A stretch of 64,000 nucleotides of DNA from Escherichia phage KKE7M. Below, piece by piece: positions 12,719-53,650 of this stretch (positions are counted from its first letter, which is position 1; each line of letters opens with the position of its first letter). The position numbers were made by a program, and so were the translations under genes. The stretch lies in the sequence record PQ356295.1; one strand, given 5' to 3'. Below the pieces are notes generated by a model. That model had not been told where the DNA came from, did no database searches, and saw only the letters and a list, made by a program, of their open reading frames with translations.

Positions 12719-12719
12719 A

Positions 12720-12932: not shown

Positions 12933-12933
12933 A

Positions 12934-37274: not shown

Positions 37275-37313
37275 CTACTACTCCTCTTATTAAATCTGGC
37301 ATTAATGCAAGAA

Positions 37314-37337
37314 AACCCGCCGAAGCGGGTTTTTATT
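37314..37337 (-). terminator. rho-independent terminator (bidirectional-capable)
   Basis: ACCCGC-CGAA-GCGGGT hairpin with flanking T/A runs after AAA ATPase gene. Confidence 0.65.
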
Positions 37338-37348: not shown

Positions 37349-38476
37349 TTAAAACACACTTGCCAAAGTTGCACCATTGGTGATAGTTGGTTCCAGAACA
37401 ATACGGAAAGAATCTTCTGGATCATCACTAAACACAACGATTTTACCGCCTGTGATAAGATCTGCTTTCATTTTTGTCGCATTCAATGGAATTCGAGCAT
37501 CGCCTTCATCATCAAAAACCACGTAAGAGCTATTAGCAAGGGCTTCTTTAGAGTCTGCATCACTTGGAGATGACAAGTACACGTCTAGTGTGCACGAACC
37601 ACCTAAAAAGATTGCAGGTGTAAAGTTATGCCAACTAGATACCCAGCTAACTTTCTGAAGTTTTCCATTAATAACAACGCTGCTGATATCCCATTTATTA
37701 CCACCACCTAAAGAAACGCCCATCATAGAGATGCATTCTTTAAAGGATAAATCAGGGTAGAAATTAAGTTCTTCTACTATACCTTGGATCACATCAAAGG
37801 ACAACTCTAAACTTACATCCCAAAGTCTTTGGAAATTATCAAAGTGTGCTTTGTTATCCAGGTTTTTATCTAAATAGTCAATCATAGTTTCTAGTGAGAT
37901 TTTATCATAATTAAAATTATAAAACACACGACTAGGACGATTTAAAAAGAATTCAGAGATAAAACCACTGTTTTTAGTCAGAATAAACAGTTTATTACCA
38001 CTGCCAGTACCATCTAACAAAGTGAGAAGTGCTTCTTGATCTTGTTTCTTCTCATATACTTTATCAAACTCGTCAAAAATAATCACTGCTTTGTCGGTGA
38101 TCTTGCTAATAAGTTCAATGAAATTAGCATCACTGTAGGCTTGAGTAACCATAATAGTTGGAATACCTTCTTCTACAAGATCACGACTAATGAGTTTGGC
38201 TAACATAGTTTTACCACTACCCTTAGTTCCTGTCAGAAGCAAGCCTGTATTTTTACCTTGTGCACTCCGGCGATGGAATGTACGGATAACGTGATTTGCT
38301 CGTTTTTCTGTTTCACCATACAGAACATCCGGTACACCTGTTAGATTACCACGGCTTAAAAAATAATTGCCAAGGGGATCACGACTAACAGTATAGAATC
38401 CAGGTGGAAGATAGTTAGATTCCACGCCCATATCTTTATTTACACTTACAATATCACCATAAATCGTGTATTTCAT
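37349..38476 (-). CDS. AAA-family ATPase (paralog 1)
   Basis: Walker A GTKGSGKT, Walker B IIFDEFDK, downstream LLTLLDG ... LFILTKN; about 45 percent identical to 52455..53615. Confidence 0.8.
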   Translation of the reverse strand: MKYTIYGDIVSVNKDMGVESNYLPPGFYTVSRDPLGNYFLSRGNLTGVPDVLYGETEKRANHVIRTFHRRSAQGKNTGLLLTGTKGSGKTMLAKLISRDLVEEGIPTIMVTQAYSDANFIELISKITDKAVIIFDEFDKVYEKKQDQEALLTLLDGTGSGNKLFILTKNSGFISEFFLNRPSRVFYNFNYDKISLETMIDYLDKNLDNKAHFDNFQRLWDVSLELSFDVIQGIVEELNFYPDLSFKECISMMGVSLGGGNKWDISSVVINGKLQKVSWVSSWHNFTPAIFLGGSCTLDVYLSSPSDADSKEALANSSYVVFDDEGDARIPLNATKMKADLITGGKIVVFSDDPEDSFRIVLEPTITNGATLASVF

Positions 38477-38487
38477 TTTAACCCCTT

Positions 38488-38925
38488 TTATTTTTGTTGA
38501 GATGAACGAATTAAATCAGCAGCAAATTCAATCAGATACACTTTTGGTGCAATAATGATTTTTAGCCAATCAAAATTCGAAAAGAAAATAACAAATCCTA
38601 AAAAGAAAAAGAAAGCACAGACAACAAGACCAACAATAGGTAAAGCAGATACTTCACCATAACGATCTCGTGACCACAGGCATTCTTTATCTTTAATTGC
38701 TTTTACGATGTTCCGCACAGCAATAAAAGTAATAAACATAAAGCAAATACTAAAAAGTTGCCATAAACCTGCGGATACTGCTTTCCACACTAATAATTGA
38801 TGGATTACTTCTGGAATTTGTTGTTTTCCAAACTCTACAACATCACTCATTGTTTGAATAGTGACGTTAACCATGTTCAGAAGTACATCCGTTGCTTTAT
38901 CTGCGATTACGTTTGTTTTACTCAT
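38488..38925 (-). CDS. membrane protein (145 aa)
   Basis: GAGGAATAAAGA RBS; several hydrophobic helices. Confidence 0.6.
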   Translation of the reverse strand: MSKTNVIADKATDVLLNMVNVTIQTMSDVVEFGKQQIPEVIHQLLVWKAVSAGLWQLFSICFMFITFIAVRNIVKAIKDKECLWSRDRYGEVSALPIVGLVVCAFFFFLGFVIFFSNFDWLKIIIAPKVYLIEFAADLIRSSQQK

Positions 38926-38940
38926 TCTTTATTCCTCACT

Positions 38941-39113
38941 TACCTTTTAAGGAAACCAATCATAATGAAGAACCACATCCAGGCAGGAGAGATAATAAAG
39001 CCAAAGAAACCGCAAATAACCGCTTTCTTAATCTCTTCCAGACAACCCACTAGGAAAAGAACGAGTGAGACTACAATCCAAATAGCCATAAATACTGTAA
39101 CAAAGAAACTCAT
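38941..39113 (-). CDS. small membrane protein, about 57 aa
   Basis: ACGGGAGAAAGGT RBS; hydrophobic; not in ORF track; coordinates approximate. Confidence 0.35.
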
Positions 39114-39133
39114 ACCTTTCTCCCGTCTGTATT

Positions 39134-39385
39134 TTAAAATTCAACCACCACTTTATCGAGGTGCTCTGCTTCAACTTGATCTAATGTTAACACCTCAACT
39201 AAACCCTTGTCAATACCTAATTTAATAACATCAACATATTGTCCAAACAGATCCTGGATAGATATCTTGTGTTCGACAACAACAACCACTTCATTCCCTT
39301 TTGTGAATTCTCTCCATACACGTCCACATTTGAAAATAAAGTCTGCTTCATCTGCTGTTATCATTTTAGGTTTGATACTTAACAT
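39134..39385 (-). CDS. hypothetical protein (83 aa)
   Basis: ATGA overlap with upstream gene. Confidence 0.55.
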   Translation of the reverse strand: MLSIKPKMITADEADFIFKCGRVWREFTKGNEVVVVVEHKISIQDLFGQYVDVIKLGIDKGLVEVLTLDQVEAEHLDKVVVEF

Positions 39386-39936
39386 TATAAAACTCCGTAT
39401 TCCGGCTCAAAATCATATTTTTCACAAATCATGTCCCAGCGTTCGTTACCGAAGCTGCGACCACAAATTGCATCGTAAGCATAATGCTCTGCTAACCATT
39501 TTACAACAGTGTCTACATCATTATCAAGTGGTAATCTGAATTCTTTGCCATAGCGCATACGAAGAACAAATTCACCCCCTTCTTCAAACAAGTGCATATG
39601 GCTTTTTGCATAAGAAGCCAGGTTGAAAAAAGATACCTCTTCCCAGCATTCTTTTTCCACTGCAATCCCGTGATCAACAACTAAAGCACCGATGACGCGA
39701 TACATAATAGGGCTAAACAGTGCGCTTGAGTTAGGCTGATCTTCAACTATAGACCAACCTGTTCCCTGCCAAATTTCATTTTTGAACCATTGTTCCATGT
39801 TATTTCCTTTTTCGTCTACAAGGGATTGGTTACGCATTTCAAACCATTCCCCTTCGCAAAAGTATGTATGTTTAACACGTTTGCCTTTTAACATTGCTTC
39901 TTTGGCTTCTACCCAAGTCAGATCGGTGTTTTGCAT
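39385..39936 (-). CDS. hypothetical protein (about 183 aa)
   Basis: Start trimmed to ATG with GAGGAGATAAACGA RBS downstream of promoter. Confidence 0.6.
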   Translation of the reverse strand: MQNTDLTWVEAKEAMLKGKRVKHTYFCEGEWFEMRNQSLVDEKGNNMEQWFKNEIWQGTGWSIVEDQPNSSALFSPIMYRVIGALVVDHGIAVEKECWEEVSFFNLASYAKSHMHLFEEGGEFVLRMRYGKEFRLPLDNDVDTVVKWLAEHYAYDAICGRSFGNERWDMICEKYDFEPEYGVL

Positions 39937-39968
39937 TCGTTTATCTCCTCTCATTTGTGTATGCATTA

Positions 39969-39996
39969 AGATTAGCACAATAAAACAGTATGTCAA
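39969..39996 (-). promoter_or_regulatory. sigma70-like promoter (TTGACA-16-TAATCT) at divergent junction
   Basis: -35/-10 pair about 30 nt upstream of first gene of reverse operon. Confidence 0.45.
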
Positions 39997-40052
39997 TACT
40001 TGATCTGAAATTAGTTTCTGGTACTCTGTGTGTATCGTAACAAAAGAGGTAG

Positions 40053-40346
40053 ATGATGAACATTACTTTAGCAACTAAGAATATTTCTGAAACAATTAAC
40101 GGTTTTGGTGTGATTGTAGCCTTGCACGGTAACAATGAGAAATGGTTGGCTTCTTTTGAAGAGGATCGTCAGCACAACATCATTTTAGATGCTCCTATAA
40201 AAGTTATGCATATTGTTGGTGAAAGCAAAGTGCTCACTTCCTCCCGTTCAAGGGAACAAATTACAAATGAATTAGTAAAACTGCTTGACAATGTTCTTAA
40301 CATGTTTGATGATGCTCCCATCAACACAAAACGTGTCTTAATGTGA
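40053..40346 (+). CDS. hypothetical protein (97 aa)
   Basis: AAAGAGGTAGATG RBS; first gene of forward block. Confidence 0.6.
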   Translation: MMNITLATKNISETINGFGVIVALHGNNEKWLASFEEDRQHNIILDAPIKVMHIVGESKVLTSSRSREQITNELVKLLDNVLNMFDDAPINTKRVLM

Positions 40347-40358
40347 GAGGAGAACCAA

Positions 40359-40646
40359 ATGTATTATTCACAAGACGAAGTAGCAAACATTAAACTGGCA
40401 GTGGGCGATCTTATTGTGTCACCTAACTACTATTGGGATAACACAGACTTGGTTGAAGTAGTAACCTATGTTGGAGTTGAAGGTATTGTGCTCTACACAC
40501 TAGGTGGAGGTGTTGTTGGGGAAATGGAACGTTATACGACAACGAAGAAACTGGTAAGCTCTTATCACATGTTTTTACACCAAGGTTCGGAAGAGTATAC
40601 AGATTTCTTGTTGAAATTAGATGCAGATCGGGAGAAGGCACGATGA
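40359..40646 (+). CDS. hypothetical protein (95 aa)
   Basis: GAGAGGAGAACC RBS. Confidence 0.6.
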   Translation: MYYSQDEVANIKLAVGDLIVSPNYYWDNTDLVEVVTYVGVEGIVLYTLGGGVVGEMERYTTTKKLVSSYHMFLHQGSEEYTDFLLKLDADREKAR

Positions 40647-40996
40647 AAATTGTACACGATGAAATTCAATTTGAAGAGAGTGATCTTCTTGATCTGGATG
40701 TGACACTAAGTAAACTGATCTACAATGCACTTTCTGCGTATCGTGCAAAAGTGATAGCCACAAACAATGTTAAAATTCCTAGTGGGTTACTTCGTCGGAT
40801 GTACCCACACGCTAAAGGTGACTATCTACCTTATATGGAAGAACGAGCAGCAGAACACTGGTTAGAAATTCTTGAAAAAATGGAGTCTTCTTTTAAGGAC
40901 TCAACTCCACCAGAAGAAGTTAATGAAAAACAACGGCAAGATCGTTTAGAAGGTCGTATTTTGTTTGCTAAGTATTTTCATAACCTGTGGATGTAA
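40643..40996 (+). CDS. hypothetical protein (117 aa)
   Basis: ATGA overlap; GGAGAAGG upstream. Confidence 0.6.
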   Translation: MKIVHDEIQFEESDLLDLDVTLSKLIYNALSAYRAKVIATNNVKIPSGLLRRMYPHAKGDYLPYMEERAAEHWLEILEKMESSFKDSTPPEEVNEKQRQDRLEGRILFAKYFHNLWM

Positions 40997-41008
40997 CAAG
41001 GAGTAAAG

Positions 41009-41164
41009 ATGGTTATCTACAAAAATAAGTTCACTGGCTGTCTGCGTAAATTTATTGACAAAAAAGGGTATGTTTCTGTTGACAATGGTGTTACGTGGGT
41101 GCAAAATGGCACTTCAGAACAACTGATCAGGGCTTTACCTTACTACGAGGAGTCTACAAAATGA
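41009..41164 (+). CDS. small protein, 51 aa
   Basis: ACAAGGAGTAAAG RBS; stop overlaps next ATG; not in ORF track. Confidence 0.5.
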   Translation: MVIYKNKFTGCLRKFIDKKGYVSVDNGVTWVQNGTSEQLIRALPYYEESTK

Positions 41165-41361
41165 CAGAATGGGTAAAAGTAGAAGATCCATACGATATCC
41201 CACTAGGTGAGTATGTGGTGGTAATGGAAGATGGTGGAAAAGGGTATTGTGAAGTGCATAAAAGTATGTCTGGTAAGATTATTGTGGTGAACCATCATTT
41301 TCACTTTGATTACCCTCCCATTGTGGCATATATGCCTTTACCTAAATATGAAGGGGATTAA
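41161..41361 (+). CDS. hypothetical protein (66 aa)
   Basis: CGAGGAG RBS before internal ATG of listed ORF. Confidence 0.55.
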   Translation: MTEWVKVEDPYDIPLGEYVVVMEDGGKGYCEVHKSMSGKIIVVNHHFHFDYPPIVAYMPLPKYEGD

Positions 41362-41508
41362 ATGTTATTCTTTAGACTTAATATTGCTTTTTGTTTGTTT
41401 GCAAATATTGCATTCTGGGTATTGGGTAGTGTAAAATTAGGCTACTTCTTTATTGTACTACAAGCTATTTGTTTAGCTGGTCAAATAATCACTAAGGGGC
41501 GAGTATGA
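41362..41508 (+). CDS. small membrane peptide, 48 aa
   Basis: AAGGGGATTAA then ATG; hydrophobic; stop overlaps next start; not in ORF track. Confidence 0.4.
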   Translation: MLFFRLNIAFCLFANIAFWVLGSVKLGYFFIVLQAICLAGQIITKGRV

Positions 41509-41933
41509 CACAACAAATCCAAGACAAGTTTAATGAACTCTATCCAGCAAGCGAAAGCGGCACTCATAACGTGCGTAAATCGCTCTATAACGTCTTTAAA
41601 GCAGGATGGGAGGCTTGCCTTCAGGCTCAAGAGGAACCAGCGTCAGGGACGCGTAACGGCTTTTATATCCCGATTGTTGAAAGTGAGGAAGGATGGGGTA
41701 GCAAACATGATGGTTATATGGTAGGATTCACCATAGAAGATCTTGAAGAACGCCGTAAAGTCTTTGAGGCAGCTAATACAGAAAAGTATGGCTACTATTA
41801 TGAACGACCTGTTCGTTACATTCCTGTTGTGCTTAGTCCTAAAGCTGTTGAAACAATGTCTGCAACAGAAAAAGAAAGGACTCGCCATTGTGTATGGTTT
41901 GATGATATTGACGATTTTCGATTTGGAGAATAA
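41505..41933 (+). CDS. hypothetical protein (142 aa)
   Basis: AAGGGGCGAGT RBS. Confidence 0.6.
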   Translation: MTQQIQDKFNELYPASESGTHNVRKSLYNVFKAGWEACLQAQEEPASGTRNGFYIPIVESEEGWGSKHDGYMVGFTIEDLEERRKVFEAANTEKYGYYYERPVRYIPVVLSPKAVETMSATEKERTRHCVWFDDIDDFRFGE

Positions 41934-41936
41934 ATT

Positions 41937-42209
41937 ATGAAAAATAAACACCCTTACTATAAATTATTGCATGTACTGCGCCGATTGCGCAATAAACAGA
42001 TTGAAGATTTCCGTCACTTCAAGCGTGATCGTGTGAATCGTCAATGGATGGATCATCGTTTCTTCTCTCTAACTATACGTAAGTTCCGTGAAGAGATTAA
42101 GAAGACAGACCAGGTAATTGCAGGTGCTAAACGTGCAATCTCTATGTCAAAGATCACAGGTGTAAATCATATGTACGACTTCAAAACAGACTCTGTTGTA
42201 CCTATGTAA
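41937..42209 (+). CDS. hypothetical basic protein (90 aa)
   Basis: GGAGAATAAATT upstream. Confidence 0.55.
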   Translation: MKNKHPYYKLLHVLRRLRNKQIEDFRHFKRDRVNRQWMDHRFFSLTIRKFREEIKKTDQVIAGAKRAISMSKITGVNHMYDFKTDSVVPM

Positions 42210-42237
42210 AAGTATTTTGTAAAGTTTTGTGGAGAGT

Positions 42238-42306
42238 ATTGACTTTTTCAGAAAAACATGCTACCCTAAACCTGAAAGGTGACGAGCGAAGCGAGTTAGT
42301 ATTCTC
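42238..42306 (+). repeat. copy B of the ~65-bp element (TTGACTTTTTCAGAAAAACATGCTACCCTAA ... GAGCGAAGCGAGTTAG)
   Basis: Matches copy A at 14411..14478; here begins with TTGACT and precedes a forward gene. Confidence 0.4.
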
Positions 42307-42373
42307 TATAGATATTGTTCCTGTCACTCATGGAGGGGCAGGAACAGAGTATATTACTGTATAGGAGAATACT

Positions 42374-42640
42374 ATGGATGTTACTACACTAAGGTTTATA
42401 CTTCTCTTCTTACTTATAGTTATAGGATTAATTGTTATACCCTATCTATATGTCTACATGTTATCTTGTAAGTATGGTTATGATCGTATACCATTTTACT
42501 ATTTAATACCTGTCTTAATTATCTATCTATTTCTCTTTTGTAGATATTGCCCTGAATTAGTCCCTGAACACTGGAAGTTAGAACCTGTTGAAGTTTACTA
42601 TTGTGAATGGAAGACAGAATACAGATCTAACAGTAATTAG
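42374..42640 (+). CDS. membrane protein (88 aa)
   Basis: ATAGGAGAATACT RBS; two hydrophobic helices. Confidence 0.55.
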   Translation: MDVTTLRFILLFLLIVIGLIVIPYLYVYMLSCKYGYDRIPFYYLIPVLIIYLFLFCRYCPELVPEHWKLEPVEVYYCEWKTEYRSNSN

Positions 42641-42700
42641 TTATTGACTCTATCTACTAAATAATCTAGACTCTATGTAAAATTTACTAAGGAGACTACT

Positions 42701-42865
42701 ATGCAAAACATTTCTATCACTAAAACAAAAAGATCTGTACCTAAACTTACTCACTCTACATATCCTGTTATCATCCGTAAAGGAAAAGAATGGATTAAAG
42801 ATGATCATGGTGGTTATGTAGAAGTGTCAAAGCTGAAAGAAGCAGAAGTTAACTTTGTACGCTAA
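42701..42865 (+). CDS. small protein, 54 aa
   Basis: CTAAGGAGACTACT RBS; not in ORF track. Confidence 0.5.
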   Translation: MQNISITKTKRSVPKLTHSTYPVIIRKGKEWIKDDHGGYVEVSKLKEAEVNFVR

Positions 42866-42875
42866 GGAGTAGACT

Positions 42876-43157
42876 ATGACTGAAGAATTTAAGCAATGGT
42901 TTGATAAAACCTTCCCACCACATATGTGGCCTAACGAAGAAGAACGTCAAGAAGTGATGATCTACACTTGGCTTGCCTGGCGGGATGGTATCCGTAGCAA
43001 AGAAGCACAGGAAGAGGAACCTATTGCCTACATCTTTAAACATCCAGCAGGTAAGTTGTTTTGGGCTTTAACAGATGAAAGTAATAAAGATCAACACGAT
43101 GTTATTCCTGTGTATACCAAGAGCAATGTAAAGGATCAATCAGATGACAAGGTATAG
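42876..43157 (+). CDS. hypothetical protein (93 aa)
   Basis: GCTAAGGAGTAGACT RBS. Confidence 0.6.
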   Translation: MTEEFKQWFDKTFPPHMWPNEEERQEVMIYTWLAWRDGIRSKEAQEEEPIAYIFKHPAGKLFWALTDESNKDQHDVIPVYTKSNVKDQSDDKV

Positions 43158-43626
43158 CATATGGGGTAGAATGGGCGAAGACCATGATTACTATTGCTTG
43201 AAAAGTAATGTTGAACAGGCAGATGTTGATAAAATTATAAAGCACTACCTAAAAACATGGCGTGAAGTGGAGTTTAGAGAGTTCGCTATCCTCCATAGTC
43301 AAGAAGGAGAAAAGGAGATAGACATGAGTACACTAACTAAAGCAGTACAAACGCATAAGGAGTATGAGGAAGCAGTTAAAGATGAAGTGAACCCTACTTC
43401 ACTGACGTTCGAAAACCTCACCCCTTTGTTTTGGTCATATGATGGTAATGAAATTTTTACACATGATACACCAGAGGCTGTTAAAAATTGGGAAGGCTGT
43501 TGTAATTCCTATGAGGTGTTATATGTTGTAGAAGAAGATGATACGTACATTATGTTCCGCATAGATAACGGTTGTGGTGATCAGTGGGATATTGTTCTTT
43601 CTAAACATTTGCAATTGGGTGGTTAA
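43144..43626 (+). CDS. hypothetical protein (160 aa)
   Basis: ORF overlapping upstream gene end. Confidence 0.6.
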   Translation: MTRYSIWGRMGEDHDYYCLKSNVEQADVDKIIKHYLKTWREVEFREFAILHSQEGEKEIDMSTLTKAVQTHKEYEEAVKDEVNPTSLTFENLTPLFWSYDGNEIFTHDTPEAVKNWEGCCNSYEVLYVVEEDDTYIMFRIDNGCGDQWDIVLSKHLQLGG

Positions 43627-43627
43627 A

Positions 43628-43990
43628 ATGCTAAAGTACCTGATGATCACTTGGTTATGTTTACTTTCATTTGCGGGGCATGCAACAGAAGGTTTTAAAC
43701 TTGGTGCTGACGGTACTAAATTCTTTACATATTGGGGTGGGAAAGCCTTATACCAAGAAGAAAAGAATAGCATAGAATGTACGGTTAGTAAGAAGATTAA
43801 ATCAGTAGATCAATATGGGGATGCCTATACTGGTGTAGGTTTTAACTGTGGAAAAGATTTATTTCTATTTGTTAAGAAGTATTTAGATGTTAACCTTGTA
43901 TTGCTTATTGTTATAGATCCTGCTAAGTTTGAAGAGCGTAAAGCATATCGTGCAGATATGTTCCTAGAATATGATGATAAGGAGAAATAA
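43628..43990 (+). CDS. putative secreted protein with signal peptide (about 120 aa)
   Basis: Start trimmed to MLKYLMITWLCLLSFAGHA signal-peptide-like N-terminus. Confidence 0.55.
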   Translation: MLKYLMITWLCLLSFAGHATEGFKLGADGTKFFTYWGGKALYQEEKNSIECTVSKKIKSVDQYGDAYTGVGFNCGKDLFLFVKKYLDVNLVLLIVIDPAKFEERKAYRADMFLEYDDKEK

Positions 43991-44341
43991 ATGCTTGATG
44001 TAACTATTAATGGTGTTAAATATATTCCTTATGTAGAGAAAAGCAATCCTGATGCCCTGGATGTTATGTTTGAGGATTCAGACCTTGGTACTGTCACTGT
44101 ACGGGAATATTTCCGACAACTACTCTCTACGTTATGGAGAGAAGAAGAGTGTTTTAATGGTAAACGTCCATTTGGTAATTCATGCTGGCAATTTGATATG
44201 ATCCGTGCCTTAATTGAGGCAGGGTATATTGAAGGTACAGTTGTGTACGATGAAGATGGATATCCAGAAGAAACTGATTACGACAGTAAAGAAGCTAATA
44301 AATTTATACAGGGCTTGATTGCACAGATGTGTTTGGGTTAA
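43991..44341 (+). CDS. hypothetical protein (116 aa)
   Basis: AAGGAGAAATAA RBS. Confidence 0.6.
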   Translation: MLDVTINGVKYIPYVEKSNPDALDVMFEDSDLGTVTVREYFRQLLSTLWREEECFNGKRPFGNSCWQFDMIRALIEAGYIEGTVVYDEDGYPEETDYDSKEANKFIQGLIAQMCLG

Positions 44342-44342
44342 T

Positions 44343-44729
44343 ATGAAAGTATTAAATTTCTACCATTTAGGTAAAGTAATACCTGAAGGTGCAGTGTACA
44401 TTGGCAGAGCTATGCCTCATATGGGGTTAAAAGCCTCAAAGTTTGCAAATCCTTTTAAGTTAAAGGATGATGAGCCACGAGGATCAACTATACAAAGATA
44501 TAAAGAGTGGTTGTGGGAGCAAATTCGTTGTGGTAAAATCACTCTTGAAGATTTGTTAGAATTAGAAGGGAAAGACTTAGTTTGCTTCTGCTCACCTCAA
44601 CCTTGTCATGGTGATGTGTTGGTAGCAGCGGTTGCTTGGGCTAGAACAGAGTGGGATAAAAGGCATCCTACTTACACAGATGATTATTGGATTTGGGAGG
44701 ATATTTATGAAGACTACACAAGAAATTAA
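44343..44729 (+). CDS. DUF4326-like protein
   Basis: GRAMPHMGLKASKFANPF ... YKEWLWEQI ... LVCFCSPQPCHGDVL pattern. Confidence 0.5.
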   Translation: MKVLNFYHLGKVIPEGAVYIGRAMPHMGLKASKFANPFKLKDDEPRGSTIQRYKEWLWEQIRCGKITLEDLLELEGKDLVCFCSPQPCHGDVLVAAVAWARTEWDKRHPTYTDDYWIWEDIYEDYTRN

Positions 44730-45072: not shown

Positions 45073-45093
45073 CAAACCAATAAGGAAAATATA

Positions 45094-45609: not shown

Positions 45610-45617
45610 GGGGAAAT

Positions 45618-46094
45618 ATGTCTAAACGTTTTGGTCGTAATCAAAAAAGAAAGTTAAGTGCTCAACTAGCAGCTTTGCAAAAAGAGGTTAACACTTTACA
45701 AAAAAGTGTTTGTGAACTCAAGGAACAAAACCAGCTTGAAAAAGAGTGTATTCAGCTTACACAGGAAGTTATTGGGGAGTATTTCCCTTCATTAGTGCCT
45801 AAGAAGGTGGCTCTTAGGGAAAATCTACCTTTTGCCTTATCCTTGATGCAAACAAGGGATAGATTCCAAACTGAAACTGATGATTTGATGTTTGCAATGC
45901 ATCAATTACGTGGTTTAGAATATACAGCACGAGTGGATAAACTTCGTAACATGTTATATGTGCGGGTAGAAACACCTAAAGGTGAGACAGTAGCATTTAA
46001 TTATAATTTCCAACAGCTACCTGATCACATTATTGAACAAATTTTAAAACGAGATTTTGTTCCTATGCTTGTTAAACAAATTAAGAGAGGTTGA
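45618..46094 (+). CDS. hypothetical protein (158 aa)
   Basis: GGGGGAAAT RBS. Confidence 0.6.
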   Translation: MSKRFGRNQKRKLSAQLAALQKEVNTLQKSVCELKEQNQLEKECIQLTQEVIGEYFPSLVPKKVALRENLPFALSLMQTRDRFQTETDDLMFAMHQLRGLEYTARVDKLRNMLYVRVETPKGETVAFNYNFQQLPDHIIEQILKRDFVPMLVKQIKRG

Positions 46095-46095
46095 A

Positions 46096-47832
46096 ATGGC
46101 TAAGAAAGAGTTGAGTTTTACTCCAACAGAAGAGCAAACAGCTATTAAGGAGGCTTTTCCAGATCATCGGTTTTTAACTATCCAAGCTAAATCTGGATCA
46201 GGAAAAACGTCAACACTTTATTTGCTGGCTAACAGTACAGAAGATCGCATTCTTTACTTAGCTTTCAATAAAAGCATGGCAGAAGAAGCACGGCGTAAGA
46301 TGCCACCAAATGTAGAATGCCGTACATTGCATTCCATTTGCTATCAATTCCTGGATCATCGTTTACGTGCAAAACTGTCACGACCAGAAGGACAGTATGT
46401 TAACGTTGCAGGTACAGGTAGTGAGATAGCAAAGAAATTTAAGATTAATAATCTTATTGATAAACGAGGGAAAACACTTTTAACTCGTGCTATGATTGGT
46501 TTAATGATCAAGCAAACCGTAGGTAAGTTTGAATTTTCGGATGATCCTTTTATCAGCCGTAAACATTTTCCTGGTGTACATCTTGCAGATATTAAAAGAA
46601 AAGGTATTAACGAACACAAACTAATTACAGAAGTAGTTAAGTATGCAAAACAATTGTGGCGAGAGCGCATTGACCCTAACACAGATACTTTGATGACGCA
46701 CGACACCTATGTAAAATTGTTTGAATTGTCTGGTGCTGACCTTGGTTATGACATTATTTTTGGGGATGAATTCCAGGATGTTAACCCTGCATTCTTGTCT
46801 ATTCTGCGGAATGCTAAATCTGCAAAACAAGTAGTGGTGGTGGGAGATGAATATCAGAGCATCTACCAGTTCCGTGGAAGCCAAAATATGATGAAGGAAA
46901 CCTCTACATATGGGGCAGAGCTTCCATTAACTGCTTGCTTCCGTTTTGGCCCCAAAGTGGCAAATATTGCGAATATGATTTTAAGTGATAAAGAACCTTT
47001 GCGTCATCCTTTGGTTGGTAAAGGCTTTGATACTGTAGTAGGTAGCTACAAATCAGATGTTGTAGACTATACAAAACCTTACACTATCATCTTTCGCAAG
47101 AATTTAACCTTGCTTATGGAGGCAATGGATCGTATTGCAGATGGGGAAGAAATTATTATTAACGTAGATACCAGGGATTTTATCTCTATGGTAGATAGTG
47201 TTAATGCTCTTCGGAGAGGAGATATTGAGAAAGTAAAACATGAAACTGTATTACCTTACGCAGACTGGAATGAATTTGTTGAGTGTGCAGAGGCTGATCC
47301 AGATGCTAAACGCTTGTTAAACATTGTAGTTTCTGGTAAGGCAAACACTATAGCACATACACTTAGAACGCATAGAAATTCTCCTACAGCAAAAGTCACA
47401 CTGACTACAGCACATAAGTCTAAAGGTTTGGAGTGGGATCAGGTTATTGTTGCTAATGATTTTCCTTCCAACTATGATAAAAAGACTGGTGAATGGGTAG
47501 GACTAGAAGAGGCAGAGCGAAACCTACTGTATGTAGCGCATACCCGTTGTGTTAAATGCTTACAATGGAACACAACCGTACAGGAGATTATAGATATCAA
47601 CCGTGTTGCAACAGAGAAAGTACCAACAAGCCCTACTTTACCGATCAATGGTATTAAACTTGGTGTATTTGGCGCTGGCACATCTCGAAAAACTGTAGAA
47701 AAATTTGTTGCAGATTCTTTTGATGGTAACTATAATCATGCACAAGCATATGAGAGTTGGCTAGAGGAAGGTGAAGGTGATTTCTTAGGTGAAATAAATC
47801 TTTTACCAGATATAAATAAACTGGTAAACTAA
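46096..47832 (+). CDS. UvrD/Rep-like superfamily 1 DNA helicase
   Basis: TEEQ then Walker A AKSGSGKTST, Walker B IIFGDEFQD, VVVVGDEYQSIYQFRG helicase motif; AAGAGAGG RBS. Confidence 0.8.
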   Translation: MAKKELSFTPTEEQTAIKEAFPDHRFLTIQAKSGSGKTSTLYLLANSTEDRILYLAFNKSMAEEARRKMPPNVECRTLHSICYQFLDHRLRAKLSRPEGQYVNVAGTGSEIAKKFKINNLIDKRGKTLLTRAMIGLMIKQTVGKFEFSDDPFISRKHFPGVHLADIKRKGINEHKLITEVVKYAKQLWRERIDPNTDTLMTHDTYVKLFELSGADLGYDIIFGDEFQDVNPAFLSILRNAKSAKQVVVVGDEYQSIYQFRGSQNMMKETSTYGAELPLTACFRFGPKVANIANMILSDKEPLRHPLVGKGFDTVVGSYKSDVVDYTKPYTIIFRKNLTLLMEAMDRIADGEEIIINVDTRDFISMVDSVNALRRGDIEKVKHETVLPYADWNEFVECAEADPDAKRLLNIVVSGKANTIAHTLRTHRNSPTAKVTLTTAHKSKGLEWDQVIVANDFPSNYDKKTGEWVGLEEAERNLLYVAHTRCVKCLQWNTTVQEIIDINRVATEKVPTSPTLPINGIKLGVFGAGTSRKTVEKFVADSFDGNYNHAQAYESWLEEGEGDFLGEINLLPDINKLVN

Positions 47833-47842
47833 GGGGGTTAAA

Positions 47843-48094
47843 GTGGCAGGGTATCATTTGAAGGAGATTAGCAAAGAGGAATATGGTTCTGTTGCTAAGA
47901 TTCAAGAAGAGCTTTATGAACTTCAAGATGCTATTGATCAAGATTGCAAGCTGATGCAACTTATTGAGTTATCAGATATTGTAGGCGCTGTTGAAGGTGT
48001 TCTTGAACAGCATTTTCCTGAGATGACGCTTCAAGATTTGATCACTATGTCAAACATTACTAAACGTGCATTCCGCAGCGGAGGTCGATCATGA
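47843..48094 (+). CDS. hypothetical protein (83 aa), GTG start
   Basis: AAGGGGGTTAAA then GTG. Confidence 0.5.
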   Translation: MAGYHLKEISKEEYGSVAKIQEELYELQDAIDQDCKLMQLIELSDIVGAVEGVLEQHFPEMTLQDLITMSNITKRAFRSGGRS

Positions 48095-48663
48095 ATGTTG
48101 CAGTAATAGCTCAAGCTATTGCTTACTATGGTCGGTTTGCACAAATGTTGGAAGTTCCATATCTCGTGGATGCTGATATACTGGCGTACACACTACCAGA
48201 AAATAAAGAGGATCGCCCGTTAGGGCATCCTAACGGTAAATACTATGTAGCTAGTGCAGAACAATCTTTCCTGCAAATGGAGAAGGATGGTTTTGAATTT
48301 GCAGCAGGTAATCCATATATGGCACTAACGCCATGTTACCGTACAGAAGAAAATTTAGATGATACCCATTTTAATATTTTCTTGAAATTGGAGTTGATTG
48401 AGTTCTACCCTGATGCTACAATTGAAGAGTATGCTAACGCTATGCGTTGTTTCTTCTCTACTTATTATGGAGTTAAAACATATTTAGTACCCACTAATAT
48501 TGGGGTTGACGTAGAGGATGAATATGGTTTAGAATTAGGTTCATTCGGTATGAGGGAGTCTCCAAAAGGTCATCCTTATATCTATGCAACAGGTATTGCA
48601 GAGCCTAGGGCTTCACTGGCAATAAACCGTGTTGTAAATAACATTCAAAGCATTAGCAAATAA
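48091..48663 (+). CDS. hypothetical protein (190 aa)
   Basis: GGAGGTCGATC RBS; no confident family assignment. Confidence 0.6.
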   Translation: MNVAVIAQAIAYYGRFAQMLEVPYLVDADILAYTLPENKEDRPLGHPNGKYYVASAEQSFLQMEKDGFEFAAGNPYMALTPCYRTEENLDDTHFNIFLKLELIEFYPDATIEEYANAMRCFFSTYYGVKTYLVPTNIGVDVEDEYGLELGSFGMRESPKGHPYIYATGIAEPRASLAINRVVNNIQSISK

Positions 48664-48675
48664 GAGGAGAATAGA

Positions 48676-49110
48676 ATGTCTATTGTGACACAAATGAAAG
48701 CAGATCGTATCTTAGCACGTACAACCGATAAAGGTGCTTTTGCTTTGTTAACTAATATTATTGGTGAGTTTGACCTTGCTCGTACTCAAAAGGCAAATCT
48801 AAACAAATCAGAAGACGATATTATGATTAACATTGTTAAGATTGGTATTGCACACGCTAAAGAGGAACTAGACTCGCTTAAGAAAGTTAATGCCTCCATT
48901 AGCAAATGTGAGCGAGCTATGCGTGATATCACCACTCTGGAAAAATATTTACCAGAAATGCTATCTGAAGATGATCTTCGCGCTATTGCTGAAGAATTTG
49001 CCTTGACAGGCAAGAAAATGCCAGATATGATGAAACACCTTAAAGCAGAGTATCCGAATCAATATGATGGAAAACTTGCTTCTACCATTGCAAAAGAAAT
49101 TTTAAACTAA
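48676..49110 (+). CDS. GatB/YqeY-domain protein
   Basis: Length and pattern (KADRIL ... EKYLPEMLSEDDLRAIAEE ... MMKHLK) match YqeY-like helical domain. Confidence 0.55.
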   Translation: MSIVTQMKADRILARTTDKGAFALLTNIIGEFDLARTQKANLNKSEDDIMINIVKIGIAHAKEELDSLKKVNASISKCERAMRDITTLEKYLPEMLSEDDLRAIAEEFALTGKKMPDMMKHLKAEYPNQYDGKLASTIAKEILN

Positions 49111-49127
49111 TTTAGAAGGAGAACATA

Positions 49128-50078
49128 ATGATTGCATTTTACGCTAATAAACTGGAAGTTAAAAAAGCAGCAGAAGAGATGGGTATCCTGCATATTCTTA
49201 ACGAAGCAATTCACAAAAGTTTTGGTTACACGTCTGAAGCAGAAATCAATGATCTGATTCACAGTGTTAATGACTTGTTCTTCTACCCTAACTTTCTACA
49301 GCAATTAGATGGTTGTGGATTTGAATATATGGAGCTTCATCCTGAATATACATTTATGGAAGTAACACCTGAAAATTTTCTGGAGATTATTCGTACTGAA
49401 TATCTTGCTAAAGAGGATAAAGAAAAAGATATGGCTGAAAAAGTACAACTGACTGTGCATAATACGTGTTTCCTGGATACTGATGCCACGGAAGAAGATA
49501 TTAGTTATCTGCTTTCCGTTTGTAATCCTCGTTGTCCACAACCACATTGGAAAAATGCAGATCATTATCTAATGTATTCAACTGAAGAAAACATTACTTT
49601 CTTCGATGAAAACAGTGGTATTAATGGTGCACATAAGAATTCTCCATATCGGAAAGATCGGTTTGTAGTTGATGTAAAAACATTTACTAAACTGTTTGAG
49701 GAGTATTATTCAAAAGATGAAAGTAAAACTGAATCTTCACCAAAACCACGTTTTCGCCGACCGCGTAAACCTGTGCCTACTCGTTCTGTAAGTTATGTTC
49801 GTATCATTTACACTACACAGCAGGTATATACTCTTAAGAACGTAAGTGTTCTTACTGTACAAGAAGATGCAATTAATATTGTGCGCAATAATGTTATTAC
49901 AGAGGGTATTGAGGAAAAGATTATGTCTGTTATCGATCCTAAACTTGTTATGGCAATCATTATTAATGAACCAAAAGGTGTAACAACATTGTTCCGAAAT
50001 ATTCACGGTACTTGGGAAACTCAAGTTGACGGTTTGACTTCTGACGGTTGTACACGTATTACCAAAAACCTTGACTAA
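49128..50078 (+). CDS. hypothetical protein (316 aa)
   Basis: GAAGGAGAACATA RBS. Confidence 0.6.
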   Translation: MIAFYANKLEVKKAAEEMGILHILNEAIHKSFGYTSEAEINDLIHSVNDLFFYPNFLQQLDGCGFEYMELHPEYTFMEVTPENFLEIIRTEYLAKEDKEKDMAEKVQLTVHNTCFLDTDATEEDISYLLSVCNPRCPQPHWKNADHYLMYSTEENITFFDENSGINGAHKNSPYRKDRFVVDVKTFTKLFEEYYSKDESKTESSPKPRFRRPRKPVPTRSVSYVRIIYTTQQVYTLKNVSVLTVQEDAINIVRNNVITEGIEEKIMSVIDPKLVMAIIINEPKGVTTLFRNIHGTWETQVDGLTSDGCTRITKNLD

Positions 50079-50126
50079 GATCAAGGACAATCTTACGAAA
50101 AAGATTTAAAATAAAGATCCACCCTA

Positions 50127-50155
50127 AAGCCAGCTTAATGCTGGCTTTTATTTTC
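50127..50155 (+). terminator. rho-independent terminator
   Basis: AAGCCAGC-TTAAT-GCTGGCTT hairpin followed by TTATTTT. Confidence 0.65.
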
Positions 50156-50167
50156 CACGGAGGATTA

Positions 50168-51967
50168 ATGACCCAAAAACTATATGAGGATGTAATCGGA
50201 TTCCTCGAACAAACATCCGAAGAATTTACTCGTGAAAATGCAAACAAACCTGCAATGATTGTTAATACTCACCGAGACTTACTAGCAGGTATCCTAAGCA
50301 AGCACATGGCAATGACCCATATTTTACCGGAAGATCTGGCAGAATGGCATAAAAGTGGGTATGGTCACATTCACGATTTAGATTATTTACTCTCACCTCT
50401 AACTAATTGTTGCCTGGTAAATTACCAAGATATGCTTGAGAATGGTTTCCGTATTGGTAATGCACATATTGAAAAACCAAAATCTATTGGTGTAGCAACT
50501 ACTGTTCTAACTCAAATTATTCAAGCAGTAGCTTCTAGCCAATATGGTGGACAAACTTGTGCACATATTGATACTGGGCTTAGTCAATACGTTAAAGCAA
50601 GTTTTAATAAAATATATGCCGATGTTGGCGATTATGATATTGCTATGCGTATGGTAGATAAACAGGTTTACGATGCAATGCAAACTTTAATCTACCAGGT
50701 GAACACCCTAATGAGTGTAAATGGTCAGTCACCTTTTATAACAATTAGTTTAGGTTTGGATACCTCTGCTTTTGGTAGAATGATCACTAAAAACTACCTA
50801 ATGGTGCACAAACAAGGATTAGGAAAAGATAGGGTAACTCCTGTGTTTCCTAAAGTTATCTTCTTCTTAGAAGATGGTGTTAACATGAAAGCTGGCGATC
50901 CAAACTATGATTTGAAGCAACTGGCAATGGAGTGTTGTGCTGAACGCATTTATCCTGATTTTATCTCTGTACCTTTAAACAAAGAAGTTACAGGATCTTC
51001 AGATGGTCGCGTCACAAGCATGGGTTGCCGTAGTTTCTTGTCATACTATGCAACAGAGCAAGGTGAAAAATATGATGGTCGTTTCAACTTAGGCGTAGTT
51101 TCTTTAAACTTACCTATCATTGCAGCGGAGTCCCGTGAAAAGGGCATCTTATTTACTGAACTGTTGGAACAACATATGGAGATGGCGTATAAGGCACATA
51201 TGCTACGTGTTAACCGTATTAGACATACCAAAGCATCTCAAAACCCTACATTGTTTATGGAAGGGGCTTTAGCTCGACTAGAAGCTAATGAAGAGATTGG
51301 TAAACTATTTGAAGGTGGTTATGCCTCTATTAGTATCGGTTATGTAGGTTTAGCAGAAGCTATGGAGATTTTATACCCAAATAACACCAATCCAAAAGCT
51401 ATGGGTAAAAACATCCTTCAATATATGAAGGATATCTGTTGCACATTTAAAGAACGTTCTGGTTTAGCTTTTAGTTTGTATGGCACACCAGCAGAATCCT
51501 TGTGTTATAAATTTGCCAAAGCATTAAATGATCGCTATCCTGGTTCTATTGATCGTGACTACTTGACAAACTCTTTCCATCAACCTGTATGGATGCACAC
51601 TACCCCGTTCCAAAAGTGGGATTATGAGGAAGGTTTTGCACAAATTAGTAATGGTGGGAACATAGGTTATGTAGAAACACCAAACCTTAAAAATAACTTG
51701 CAAGCACTGGAAACTCTTGTAGATTATGCCTACAATAAAATTCCTTATTTTGGCGTGAACCAACCTGTAGATCAGTGTTTCAAATGTGGTTTTCATGGTG
51801 AATTTAAAGCAACGGCTAAAGGCTTCGAGTGTCCAAGTTGCGGTAATCATGAAGAAGAATCCATATCTGTGATCAGAAGAGTGTCAGGATACCTTTCTGC
51901 CCCTAACTCTCGCCCTTATAATAAAGGTAAAATGCAAGAGGTACTAGAAAGGGAGAAACATTTTTGA
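50168..51967 (+). CDS. nrdD: anaerobic ribonucleoside-triphosphate reductase NrdD
   Basis: Length about 600 aa, C-terminal CxxC ... CPSC zinc site and glycyl-radical motif RRVSGYLS; immediately followed by NrdG. Confidence 0.9.
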   Translation: MTQKLYEDVIGFLEQTSEEFTRENANKPAMIVNTHRDLLAGILSKHMAMTHILPEDLAEWHKSGYGHIHDLDYLLSPLTNCCLVNYQDMLENGFRIGNAHIEKPKSIGVATTVLTQIIQAVASSQYGGQTCAHIDTGLSQYVKASFNKIYADVGDYDIAMRMVDKQVYDAMQTLIYQVNTLMSVNGQSPFITISLGLDTSAFGRMITKNYLMVHKQGLGKDRVTPVFPKVIFFLEDGVNMKAGDPNYDLKQLAMECCAERIYPDFISVPLNKEVTGSSDGRVTSMGCRSFLSYYATEQGEKYDGRFNLGVVSLNLPIIAAESREKGILFTELLEQHMEMAYKAHMLRVNRIRHTKASQNPTLFMEGALARLEANEEIGKLFEGGYASISIGYVGLAEAMEILYPNNTNPKAMGKNILQYMKDICCTFKERSGLAFSLYGTPAESLCYKFAKALNDRYPGSIDRDYLTNSFHQPVWMHTTPFQKWDYEEGFAQISNGGNIGYVETPNLKNNLQALETLVDYAYNKIPYFGVNQPVDQCFKCGFHGEFKATAKGFECPSCGNHEEESISVIRRVSGYLSAPNSRPYNKGKMQEVLEREKHF

Positions 51968-52434
51968 ATTACGCCGGATATGAACCTGTTGACATGCTCA
52001 ACGGTGACGGTGTAAGATGCTCTTTGTGGGTGAGCGGTTGTAGCCACGGCTGTCGTGGCTGCTTTAACCAGAAAGCCTGGTCGTATAACTACGGACAAGA
52101 GTTCACTGCTGAAACATTAGATCTTATCTTGGAAGATTTATCTCGACCTTTCATTAAAGGATTAACAGTTTTAGGTGGTGAACCTCTTGACAAAGAGAAC
52201 ATTGATACTGTAGAGTATGTTCTTGAGAAGGTAAGAGATTGTTTTGGAAACAAAAAAGATATTGTCTTATATACAGGATATCTTTTTGAAGAAATTCCAG
52301 ATAAAATTAAAAAACTGGTTGACATAGTGATAGATGGTAAGTATGATATGAATCAACCAACAACGAAACGTTATAGAGGTTCAGATAATCAACGAATGTG
52401 GGTTAAGAAAGACAACATTTGGGAATCTGACTAA
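51964..52434 (+). CDS. nrdG: anaerobic ribonucleotide reductase activating protein NrdG (radical SAM)
   Basis: MNYAGYEPVDMLNGDGVRCSLWVSGCSHGCRGCFN parallels the NrdG N-terminus including the radical-SAM Cys cluster; TTG start overlapping nrdD stop. Confidence 0.85.
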   Translation: MNYAGYEPVDMLNGDGVRCSLWVSGCSHGCRGCFNQKAWSYNYGQEFTAETLDLILEDLSRPFIKGLTVLGGEPLDKENIDTVEYVLEKVRDCFGNKKDIVLYTGYLFEEIPDKIKKLVDIVIDGKYDMNQPTTKRYRGSDNQRMWVKKDNIWESD

Positions 52435-52454
52435 ATTAAATAGAGGAGAAAACT

Positions 52455-53615
52455 ATGTTTACAGTATTCGGCAATCAAATCTTCCTGCGTCAGAAATCTG
52501 GTACAGATATTGAAGAAATTCCAGCAGGAACTTTTGGTGTAGGTGTTACTCAAAGTGGTGAGTTCTTCTTGTATCCTAAAAACGATATGGAAGTCCCTTC
52601 AGTAACATACGGTGATACTGATGATAAATCAGAACGTATTATCAAAACGTTCCTTAGCCGCAAAGGTAAAAACACAGGTGTTCTCCTTGAAGGTACGAAA
52701 GGTAGCGGTAAAACTTTGCAAGCTAAAATGCTGTCTTCTGCTCTTCGTGAAATGGGTATTCCTACTATTTCTATCGGTAGTGCTTTTAATGGTGAAGGCT
52801 TTATCAATTTTATGTCTAAAACCACACAACCTGTGATGATTATGATCGATGAATTTGATAAACTGTATGCTGAAAAAGATGCACAAGATGGTTTGCTTAC
52901 CCTGCTGGATGGTGTTGGTGGCTACGACAAACTGTTTGTATTGACTAAAAATGATGGTTATGTATCAGAATTTTTGCGTAATCGTCCTAGCCGTATTTTC
53001 TACAGTTTTAGCTATAAGAAACTACCTAAAGCTACTATGGATGATTATCTGGCTAAAAATCTGGAGAACAAAGCCTTCTTACCAGATTTTGAAACGCTTT
53101 ATAATCTCTCCGTGGATTTGAACTTTGATATTGTTCAGTCATTAGTAGAAGAACTTAACCGTTACCCTAATGACAAATTCTCTGATGCACTTGCATTGAT
53201 GGGTATCAGTATTACTGAACACCGCTATGCTGCAAAAGAGGTTAAACTTCTGAAAGTTAACGGTGTAGATCGTACAGGAGATGTTTCGGCAGATACCGAT
53301 ATTGACGGTATGACAGCACAAGGTTTGTTTAGCGGTAATCGTTATGTTGTAGCTGTAGACCATAAACTAGGTGAAGAGCATCTTCCTGAAATGGAAGGGA
53401 TCGTTACCGTAGAAGATAAAGATGAAGAAGGTGACTACTACTGGGGTGTAGACCGTATCTTGCTGACGTATGATGAAAAACACATTCGTACAATGGGTGG
53501 TGACGGTTATCACTTTATGTTCACCGATGATAAAGGTAACAACATTGAAGTTGTTATTAAAAACAAAGAACGTAAAAATTACACAGAGTATGTGTTTGGT
53601 GGTCGTTCTTACTAA
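52455..53615 (+). CDS. AAA-family ATPase (paralog 2)
   Basis: Walker A GTKGSGKT, Walker B IMIDEFDK, LLTLLDG ... LFVLTKN; paralog of 37349..38476. Confidence 0.8.
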   Translation: MFTVFGNQIFLRQKSGTDIEEIPAGTFGVGVTQSGEFFLYPKNDMEVPSVTYGDTDDKSERIIKTFLSRKGKNTGVLLEGTKGSGKTLQAKMLSSALREMGIPTISIGSAFNGEGFINFMSKTTQPVMIMIDEFDKLYAEKDAQDGLLTLLDGVGGYDKLFVLTKNDGYVSEFLRNRPSRIFYSFSYKKLPKATMDDYLAKNLENKAFLPDFETLYNLSVDLNFDIVQSLVEELNRYPNDKFSDALALMGISITEHRYAAKEVKLLKVNGVDRTGDVSADTDIDGMTAQGLFSGNRYVVAVDHKLGEEHLPEMEGIVTVEDKDEEGDYYWGVDRILLTYDEKHIRTMGGDGYHFMFTDDKGNNIEVVIKNKERKNYTEYVFGGRSY

Positions 53616-53623
53616 GTGATAAA

Positions 53624-53650
53624 AGGAGGCGAAAGCCTCCTTTATTTATA
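53624..53650 (+). terminator. rho-independent terminator
   Basis: GGAGGC-GAAA-GCCTCC hairpin followed by TTTATTT. Confidence 0.65.

Follow-up and report, generated by a model that had tools for sequence, protein, structure and literature searches.

AAA ATPases (ATPases associated with diverse cellular activities) of the classical clade, among them Bcs1, the Rpt subunits, YjoB, NSF and proteins of the Mpa type, move polypeptides through a central pore, and the clade is marked by a second region of homology (SRH) with two arginines and by an aromatic-x-Gly pore loop. Bcs1 is the mitochondrial AAA translocase of the folded Rieske protein, and mixed AAA rings have precedents in Pex1/Pex6, Yta10/Yta12 and the Rpt subunits. 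Those AAA unfoldases that are known to take part in phage infection come from the host (e.g. ClpX on Mu transposase and ClpXP on lambda O), and we know of no characterised classical AAA unfoldase that is encoded by a phage, nor did the literature searched yield one. Here we describe two genes, A1 and A2, in a 64,000-nucleotide stretch of DNA from Escherichia phage KKE7M (PQ356295.1; hereafter the window). Both products are members of the protein family PHROG 2376, and we think it probable that they are ring-forming protein-remodelling motors of a phage-specific subfamily of classical AAA proteins, likely acting on different clients.

Resemblance of A1 and A2 to described AAA proteins

The original prediction described A1 and A2 as diverged paralogous 'classic AAA' ATPases on opposite strands, with a common layout, about 45 percent identity and a strong terminator after each gene. 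An open reading frame (ORF) check returns both genes at exactly the predicted coordinates and strands (Table 1), and every motif string that it quoted is present in the two translations. Walker A is GTKGSGKT in both (residues 83–90 in A1 and 80–87 in A2), and Walker B, at residues 132–137 and 129–134 respectively, lies in the strings VIIFDEFDK (A1) and MIMIDEFDK (A2). The string LLTLLDG is also common to the two proteins, with LTLLDG at 151–156 in A1 and 148–153 in A2, and the block of the form LF.LTKN...NRPSR.FY reads LFILTKNSGFISEFFLNRPSRVFY in A1 and LFVLTKNDGYVSEFLRNRPSRIFY in A2; it includes the sensor-1 asparagine (N169 in A1, N166 in A2) and the SRH motif NRPSR (179–183 and 176–180). 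Each gene is indeed followed by a terminator-like GC-rich hairpin and T run. The A2 hairpin was found by pattern scan and the A1 hairpin by direct reading, the latter being absent from the scan list because its T run lies partly within the stem.

Profile searches place neither protein in a well-characterised family. The sole family claiming them is PHROG 2376 (labelled 'ATPase', in the category 'other', with no function), which matches A1 with an E value of 6.6e-108 (residues 1–367 on profile positions 1–357 of 363) and A2 with one of 1.5e-102 (residues 1–376 on positions 2–359 of 363). PHROG 2376 is found in about 380 phage records, including Herelleviridae, jumbo, crAss-like and phi92/rV5-like phages. 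Its genes are already catalogued and widely annotated as 'ATPase'; the genes themselves are no novelty, and the family is not an exotic one. A literature search, PMC12210895 included, returned no functional or experimental study of any member.

Both proteins match Pfam PF00004 (AAA) above its gathering cut-off of 21.2 bits (38.9 bits for A1 and 30.2 bits for A2), and the same model matches all 48 members of a diverse alignment of PHROG 2376. Invariant across that alignment, in A1 numbering, are K89, D135, E136, D155-G156, N169, R180 and R183, and the family SRH pattern, LT(K)N ... NRP(S/G)R, aligns on the 'RPGR' of p97. When the family profile was compared with solved structures, the best matches were to the D2 domains of p97/Cdc48/VAT (E = 9e-13), followed by NSF, AFG2/SPATA5 and NVL/Rix7 (to 1e-8), and then Bcs1. 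An AlphaFold2 monomer model of A1 has a predicted local distance difference test score (pLDDT) of 88 and a predicted template modelling score (pTM) of 0.70, and the top 50 Foldseek matches to this model in the PDB are Bcs1, Rpt subunits, YjoB, NSF/Sec18, Ycf2-FtsHi and Mpa, with E values of 3e-9 to 4e-7 for the best. By sequence and modelled fold A1 and A2 belong to the classical AAA clade, as the original label had it.

The likeness to p97-type proteins lies in Walker A and B, the LLxxxDG helix, the sensor-1 asparagine, the R-P-x-R form of the SRH and, for A2 and most of the family but not for A1, the aromatic-x-Gly of pore loop 1. The phage proteins differ in having a single AAA module of about 200 residues rather than tandem D1–D2 modules, an unrelated N domain and an extra C-terminal beta domain, and identity is about 15–20%. 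Bcs1 and Bacillus subtilis YjoB, the top Foldseek matches of the full model, resemble them in being single-module classical AAA proteins of similar size (E = 3e-9, with template modelling scores of 0.43–0.46 for the query and 0.65 for the Bcs1 AAA domain), although by Pfam and hydropathy A1 and A2 have neither an N-terminal membrane anchor nor a Bcs1-specific domain, carry N- and C-terminal domains of their own and are 15–18% identical. Strong Foldseek matches to the A1 model are also given by Rpt1–6, PAN and Mpa/ARC, some of them over more than 320 columns. Like the phage proteins, these ATPases have a single AAA module set between a small beta domain at the N terminus and a flexible C-terminal tail in which an aromatic residue is conserved. 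Here too there are differences: the NCBIfam model for PAN (PRK03992) scores 16.1 bits against a cut-off of 500, the phage proteins have no coiled coil, and a beta domain of about 110 residues is interposed between lid and tail. Moreover, the HbYX motif has a penultimate tyrosine, whereas the aromatic residue of the phage family is mostly the last one, after alanine (A1 ends in ...SVF and A2 in ...RSY). Compared with PHROG 2376 at large A1 and A2 are no different in kind; the peculiarity of the present case is that one genome has two diverged copies.

The AAA module also resembles that of FtsH-type proteins, and this is reflected in deposited annotations. GenBank labels for A1 and A2 in related phages include 'ATPase (x2)', 'putative ATPase or Zn metalloprotease', 'FtsH-like protease' (A1 in phage Bas62) and 'hypothetical protein', and A1 is 100% identical to Justusliebigvirus genes annotated as 'ATPase' or 'FtsH-like protease'. 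Taken at their word, some of these labels would make the proteins an FtsH-like membrane protease or a Zn metalloprotease, which we find scarcely credible. Neither has an HExxH (M41) protease domain or transmembrane helices (no segment is hydrophobic, 19-residue Kyte-Doolittle means reaching at most about 1.0 in both), the Pfam and NCBIfam searches bring up no peptidase family, and the C-terminal beta domain gives no match to a protease fold. At the level of sequence the protease labels are refuted.

Divergence of A1 and A2 and their terminal domains

A1 and A2 are clearly related over their N-terminal two thirds. BLASTP aligns A1 residues 3–256 with A2 residues 2–253 at 118 of 254 identical positions (46%; E = 7e-81), far above chance and close to the identity first estimated, and gives no alignment over the last 120–135 residues or so. 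For this remaining part we compared profiles with hhalign, using the C-terminal domains of 22 A1-type sequences and of the A2-type sequences, drawn from clades of 24 and 41 members respectively after removal of duplicates and short fragments. The two types of C-terminal domain match with a probability of 82% and an E value of 1e-5 over 109 columns, at 16% identity. A1 and A2 therefore share one architecture end to end, and the common layout that had been proposed extends over the whole protein.

In a neighbour-joining tree built from 247 conserved columns of PHROG 2376 members, A1 and A2 fall into two separate clades, each with 100% bootstrap support; the A1 clade includes the single copy of Phapecoctavirus. 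These two clades group at 76% bootstrap with a third, from metagenomic phage contigs of about 154 kb, and with one further metagenomic sequence (P0030), apart from other phage lineages and with jumbo-phage sequences as the neighbouring clade. The branching pattern indicates that A1 and A2 are ancient paralogues within a group of phages of about 150 kb, and not the products of a recent duplication.

The 19 kb that cover A1 and A2 are 97–99% identical to the corresponding DNA of Justusliebigvirus (phi92-like, Stephanstirmvirinae) coliphages such as SD2, BME3, JohannJBalmer (Bas62) and alia, and the window is itself Justusliebigvirus DNA. Both copies are present in 54 of the 55 Justusliebigvirus records and in Klebsiella phage phi1_175008, and these same 54 records and the Klebsiella phage are where A2 orthologues are found. 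Phapecoctavirus has the A1 type only, at the same genomic position as A1. Five GenBank records named 'Campylobacter phage' match the window as well; the one listed, A110a (MG065689.1, host C. jejuni, about 146 kb), has A1 at 100%, and its host attribution, like that of the others, looks questionable.

Sequence differences within Justusliebigvirus amount to 12–21 synonymous against 0–2 non-synonymous changes per gene, for A1 and A2 alike, a ratio that speaks for strong purifying selection on both. Between the E. coli and Klebsiella phage orthologues residues 1–255 are 81% (A1) and 89% (A2) identical and the C-terminal domains 60% and 48% identical, respectively. Both genes are evidently kept by selection, and the C-terminal domain is the part that changes fast.

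The C-terminal domain of A1 is modelled well in isolation (pLDDT 89.6) and matches no solved fold, protease folds included. Its profile gives nothing significant against PDB sequences, Foldseek against predicted viral structures in BFVD finds only the C-termini of the same ATPase family, and among 1.84 billion representative proteins the profile has 41 matches, which are family members, fragments and a few long repetitive proteins. The repetitive proteins probably match through the acidic patch only. A stretch of A1 that spans the boundary between lid and C-terminal domain (residues 201–291; 37604–37876) also matches the effector domain of influenza A NS1 in several variants, at weak E values of 8e-4 to 5e-3, and we attribute this to chance.

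The N domain is small. In the A1 model it consists of five short strands (residues 1–45) followed by a linker to the invariant Y53-G54; L40 is likewise invariant, and G7 and P24 are nearly so. Searched alone, it matches only positions 1–56 of the PHROG 2376 profile, and its own profile has no match among PDB sequences. The long Foldseek alignments to Rpt subunits hint that it is possibly similar to an oligonucleotide/oligosaccharide-binding (OB) domain.

At the other end of the protein is a tail that we surveyed in 96 family members filtered at 80% identity. The terminal residue is aromatic in 51 of the 96, an aromatic residue lies within the last six positions in 91, and a common ending is (F/Y)-(N/D)-(W/Y/F)-x-x-A-(F/L/I/V). 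We infer that the tail is a docking or latch peptide.

Pore loops and the proposed mode of action

The family motif (A/P)-(W/F/Y)-x-G aligns exactly on pore loop 1 of p97 D2, M-W-F-G, and is followed by a deletion of three residues relative to p97. An aromatic residue is retained at this position in nearly all family members. The two paralogues differ at the last position of the motif: the glycine is kept in A-F-N-G of A2 and lost in A-Y-S-D of A1, the A1 clade having the form Y-(S/T/A)-(D/E).

We propose that A1 and A2 would each assemble into a ring, and that a protein client would be pulled on, unfolded or taken apart through the central pore of this ring at the expense of ATP. The aromatic pore loop, Y-S-D in A1 and F-N-G in A2, would form the lining of the pore, and the N-terminal beta domain, together with the C-terminal beta domain and its aromatic tail, would select the client or dock a partner. 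Within Stephanstirmvirinae-like phages of about 150 kb the two copies would go back either to an old duplication or to an exchange among close relatives, and they would be transcribed early or in the middle of infection, apart from the structural genes and from sigma-70-like promoters.

Several observations weigh against this proposal. The whole A1 clade, single-copy Phapecoctavirus proteins included, is without the pore-loop glycine, and the pore-loop-2 region is about 12 residues shorter than that of p97 D2; threading could therefore be weak or absent. The timing of expression is read only from promoter-like matches. No conserved neighbour gene was found at 62 loci beyond close relatives, save for spurious antisense ORFs inside the AAA gene itself (all-against-all BLASTP of ORFs from 18 and then 62 loci, comprising annotated phages and 43 GTDB genome-contig loci). 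Finally, the replication- or recombination-gene contexts of several distant homologues would also fit a role on DNA-bound complexes.

An alternative explanation is that the proteins are nucleotide-dependent switches or scaffolds that do not translocate anything, ATP binding serving to gate partner binding through the N- and C-terminal domains, whether or not a ring is formed. The glycine lost from the A1 clade and the truncated pore loop 2 speak for it, and the conserved aromatic tail does resemble a docking peptide. We nevertheless regard a switch of this kind as quite improbable, because none of the 48 aligned members departs from the Walker B glutamate, sensor 1 or either arginine of the SRH, which points to real hydrolysis coupled between subunits, and because nearly all members keep the pore-loop aromatic.

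The close likeness of the motor parts and the very different C-terminal domains make it most likely that A1 and A2, as remodelling motors, have different clients. Distinct substrates, which the original prediction had suggested, fit the data, the purifying selection on both genes included, and a mixed A1/A2 ring is equally open on this point; given the differences in C-terminal domain and pore loop, different clients is the simplest reading and a mixed ring its main variant. In that variant A1 and A2 would co-assemble in one ring and not form two machines. It is consistent with the retention of both genes in nearly all Justusliebigvirus records and in the Klebsiella relative, with the better conservation of the motor parts, the presumed carriers of the subunit interfaces, than of the C-terminal domains, and with the glycine being kept in one protein and lost in the other, which could be a division of labour within the ring. 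However, Phapecoctavirus and most other phages have a single copy, so that a ring of one subunit type must work, and the Phapecoctavirus protein is itself an A1-type one, its loop being likewise Y-[ST]-D. A1 and A2 are also 14 kb apart, on opposite strands and in separate transcription units. Overall we think it unlikely that co-assembly in place of two machines is the true state of affairs.

Gene neighbourhoods and homologues in distant phages

Four small genes and then A1 make up a leftward operon (39936 to 37349) that begins at a divergent control region; the gene order is the same in Bas62 and alia. The gene immediately upstream was considered as a partner of A1 and set aside, the pairing being unconserved beyond close relatives; its designation as a putative membrane protein comes from a weak match to PHROG 1486 only. 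A2 follows nrdD-nrdG and lies downstream of a UvrD/Rep helicase block. Its position relative to the helicase is kept in the Klebsiella phage, in which nrdDG is not beside the A2 orthologue, and we therefore do not regard the association of A2 with nrdD/nrdG as conserved. Within nrdG (51989–52347, plus strand) there are three promoter-like sites with a perfect TTGACA -35 element, starting at 51989, 52187 and 52319, the last of which scores 11 of 12.

Table 1. Positions of A1, A2, their domains and the associated signals in the window
Feature	Coordinates	Strand	Details and basis
A1, 375-aa classical-clade AAA ATPase (PHROG 2376)	37349..38476	-	ORF and profile
A1 N-terminal small beta domain (aa 1-55)	38312..38476	-	AlphaFold2 model, conservation
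A1 AAA large subdomain (aa 56-192)	37901..38311	-	Walker A/B, pore loop 1 A-Y-S-D (113-116), sensor 1, SRH
A1 helical lid (aa 193-253)	37718..37900	-	Modelled helices 195-252; invariant F227-D228, EE(L/M)N motif
A1 C-terminal beta-rich domain (aa 254-367)	37376..37717	-	Family-specific, fast-evolving, central acidic loop
A1 flexible tail GATLASVF	37352..37375	-	pLDDT below 50 for residues 368-375
A1 terminator-like hairpin, AAAACCCGC-TTCG-GCGGGTTTT and CTT	37309..37334 (about 37312-37333)	-	Read straight from the sequence
145-aa hypothetical protein upstream of A1	38488..38925	-	11-nt gap to A1, same operon; PHROG 3054 (unknown function)
Candidate sigma-70-type promoter, TTGACA-16 nt-TGc-TAATCT	39969..39996	-	Direct reading; weak -10, so unlisted by the scan
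Promoter-like TTGACA-17-TATGAT	52319..52347	+	11 of 12 consensus matches; within the nrdG 3' end and 108 nt before the start codon of A2
A2, 386-aa paralogue of A1 (PHROG 2376)	52455..53615	+	ORF and profile
A2 N domain, AAA module and lid (aa 1-250)	52455..53204	+	Motifs; pore loop 1 A-F-N-G (110-113)
A2 C-terminal domain and tail (aa 251-386)	53205..53612	+	Ends in ...YTEYVFGGRSY; profile-level homology to A1
A2 terminator-like hairpin, AAAGGAGGC-GAAA-GCCTCCTTT and ATTTAT	53622..53650 (53622-53643)	+	Pattern scan

Other genes near A1 and A2 deserve mention in their own right. Directly after A1 is a gene for a CapR/T5orf172-type endonuclease (36285–37274, minus strand), which measures 990 nt in the window, against 1173 nt for its Bas62 counterpart, 1398 nt for that of alia and 1203 nt for that of Phapecoctavirus; such variation in length among otherwise near-identical genomes suggests that the homing endonuclease is mobile or in decay. 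The second gene downstream of A1 encodes a NADAR-domain protein (35733–36284, minus strand), and downstream of A2, all on the plus strand, are genes for a HAD hydrolase (54022–54678), a ComF-like phosphoribosyltransferase (54671–55528) and a macro-domain protein (55404–56237). These genes of ADP-ribose or NAD chemistry near both ATPases may serve in counter-defence, for instance against DarT-type toxins. Further along is a TerC-family integral membrane protein (56794–57771, plus strand), annotated as Alx-like in the Klebsiella relative.

Upstream of A2, the UvrD/Rep helicase gene (46057–47832, plus strand) is without an intein here and in alia and has one of 1041 nt in Bas62 (11281–14055 of locus L001). 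A 316-aa protein (49128–50078, plus strand) is named 'ribonucleotide reductase' in PHROG 15930 and RefSeq, yet it has no Pfam match. It shares a region of about 80 residues with the N-terminal half of the macro-domain protein, and this region is found again in the gene two upstream of the third-clade ATPase in metagenomic contig L004. In the Klebsiella phage, the gene that immediately precedes the A2 orthologue is also homologous to it, over about 200 residues. The reductase label looks doubtful.

Homologues in more distant phages occur in varied surroundings. In Staphylococcus phage CF1 the gene lies between genes for primase, RNase H and a RecJ-like exonuclease and that for a Holliday-junction resolvase, in Acinetobacter phage YMC13/03/R2096 it directly follows a primase-helicase and a DNA polymerase, and in the crAss-like phage cr118_1 it overlaps the end of a primase gene and is followed by those for a resolvase and an exonuclease. 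An N4-like Alteromonas phage has it near the middle-gene RNA polymerase genes; this is the only Schitoviridae record among the matches listed (40 of 357), and there is no record of E. coli N4, the model phage, among them. The gene lies within or next to tRNA clusters in Microbacterium phage Pumpernickel, Serratia phage BF, Lactococcus phage phiL47 and Lactobacillus phage 3-521, and in Bcp1 and 7-11 it is surrounded by small hypothetical genes. Two of the tRNA-cluster phages have RNA ligase genes (RtcB-like, or labelled 'RNA ligase') within about 1–2 kb of the homologue; the 64-kb window contains no tRNA gene. Members of the family were also seen on contigs of two isolate assemblies, those of Magnetospirillum molischianum DSM 120 (L033, 112.8 kb) and Vreelandella venusta NBRC 102221 (L037, 75.9 kb), which may be phage contigs, prophages or carrier-state phages; the remaining matches in genome collections are almost all on contigs of metagenome-assembled genomes. 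Taken across phages, the gene positions fit an early or middle, non-structural role and name no client.

The contexts in CF1, YMC13/03/R2096 and cr118_1, together with the place of A2 downstream of the helicase block, raise the question of whether these are accessory ATPases of replication or recombination that act on nucleic-acid-bound complexes (as a loader, an initiator-like switch or a branch-migration helper) and thread no polypeptide. There are profile matches in this direction, to clamp loader, DnaC-like, Hda and IstB models. All are weak: the PHROG clamp-loader and DnaC-like matches have E values of 1e-8 to 1e-6 as against 1e-108 for PHROG 2376, and the curated NCBIfam cut-offs are not reached for Hda (29.8 against 194.8 bits), PRK08116 (27.5 against 189 bits) or IstB (19.9 against 200 bits), A1 and A2 being far under the cut-offs of the curated RuvB and clamp-loader models as well. 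The best sequence and fold matches are all to classical-clade protein translocases, and the two-arginine SRH and aromatic-x-Gly loop mark that clade. In Stephanstirmvirinae, Bcp1, 7-11, phiL47 and Pumpernickel the genes lie amid small early genes or tRNA genes and not amid those of replication. A remodeller acting on replication complexes would, moreover, suit identical gene contexts. We therefore hold an accessory ATPase of this sort to be an unlikely alternative to a protein remodeller; a remodeller could itself possibly work on complexes of replication or recombination.

These results also bear on the suggestion in the original prediction that A1 and A2 are not standard phage replication or packaging proteins. 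It stands in that no terminase, clamp loader or helicase loader is recognised at curated thresholds, and cannot be asserted family-wide, some homologues being located within replication or recombination modules. The PADLOC defence models give nothing close to threshold, the best E value being 8.5e-4, in the P-loop region only.

Beyond the window, it is possible, and we offer this tentatively, that PHROG 2376 as a whole is an unfoldase or disassembly machine brought by large virulent phages, which would dismantle host or phage complexes of replication, recombination or defence early in infection. The C-terminal domain with its aromatic tail would be a targeting or docking module, and Justusliebigvirus would have either two specialised rings or one mixed ring.

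None of this challenges the accepted workings of AAA motors. Hundreds of sequenced virulent phages encode a PHROG 2376 member, among them therapeutic Herelleviridae, phi92-like coliphages and crAss-like phages of the gut. To know the clients of the family would close a gap that recurs in the annotation of large phage genomes, that of the 'ATPase, function unknown', and would also correct misleading labels such as 'FtsH-like protease'. The two-copy state is a natural experiment in which the same motor is joined to different C-terminal domains, so that domain swaps could map specificity, and Bas62 (JohannJBalmer), a phage of E. coli K-12 and thus tractable, has it.

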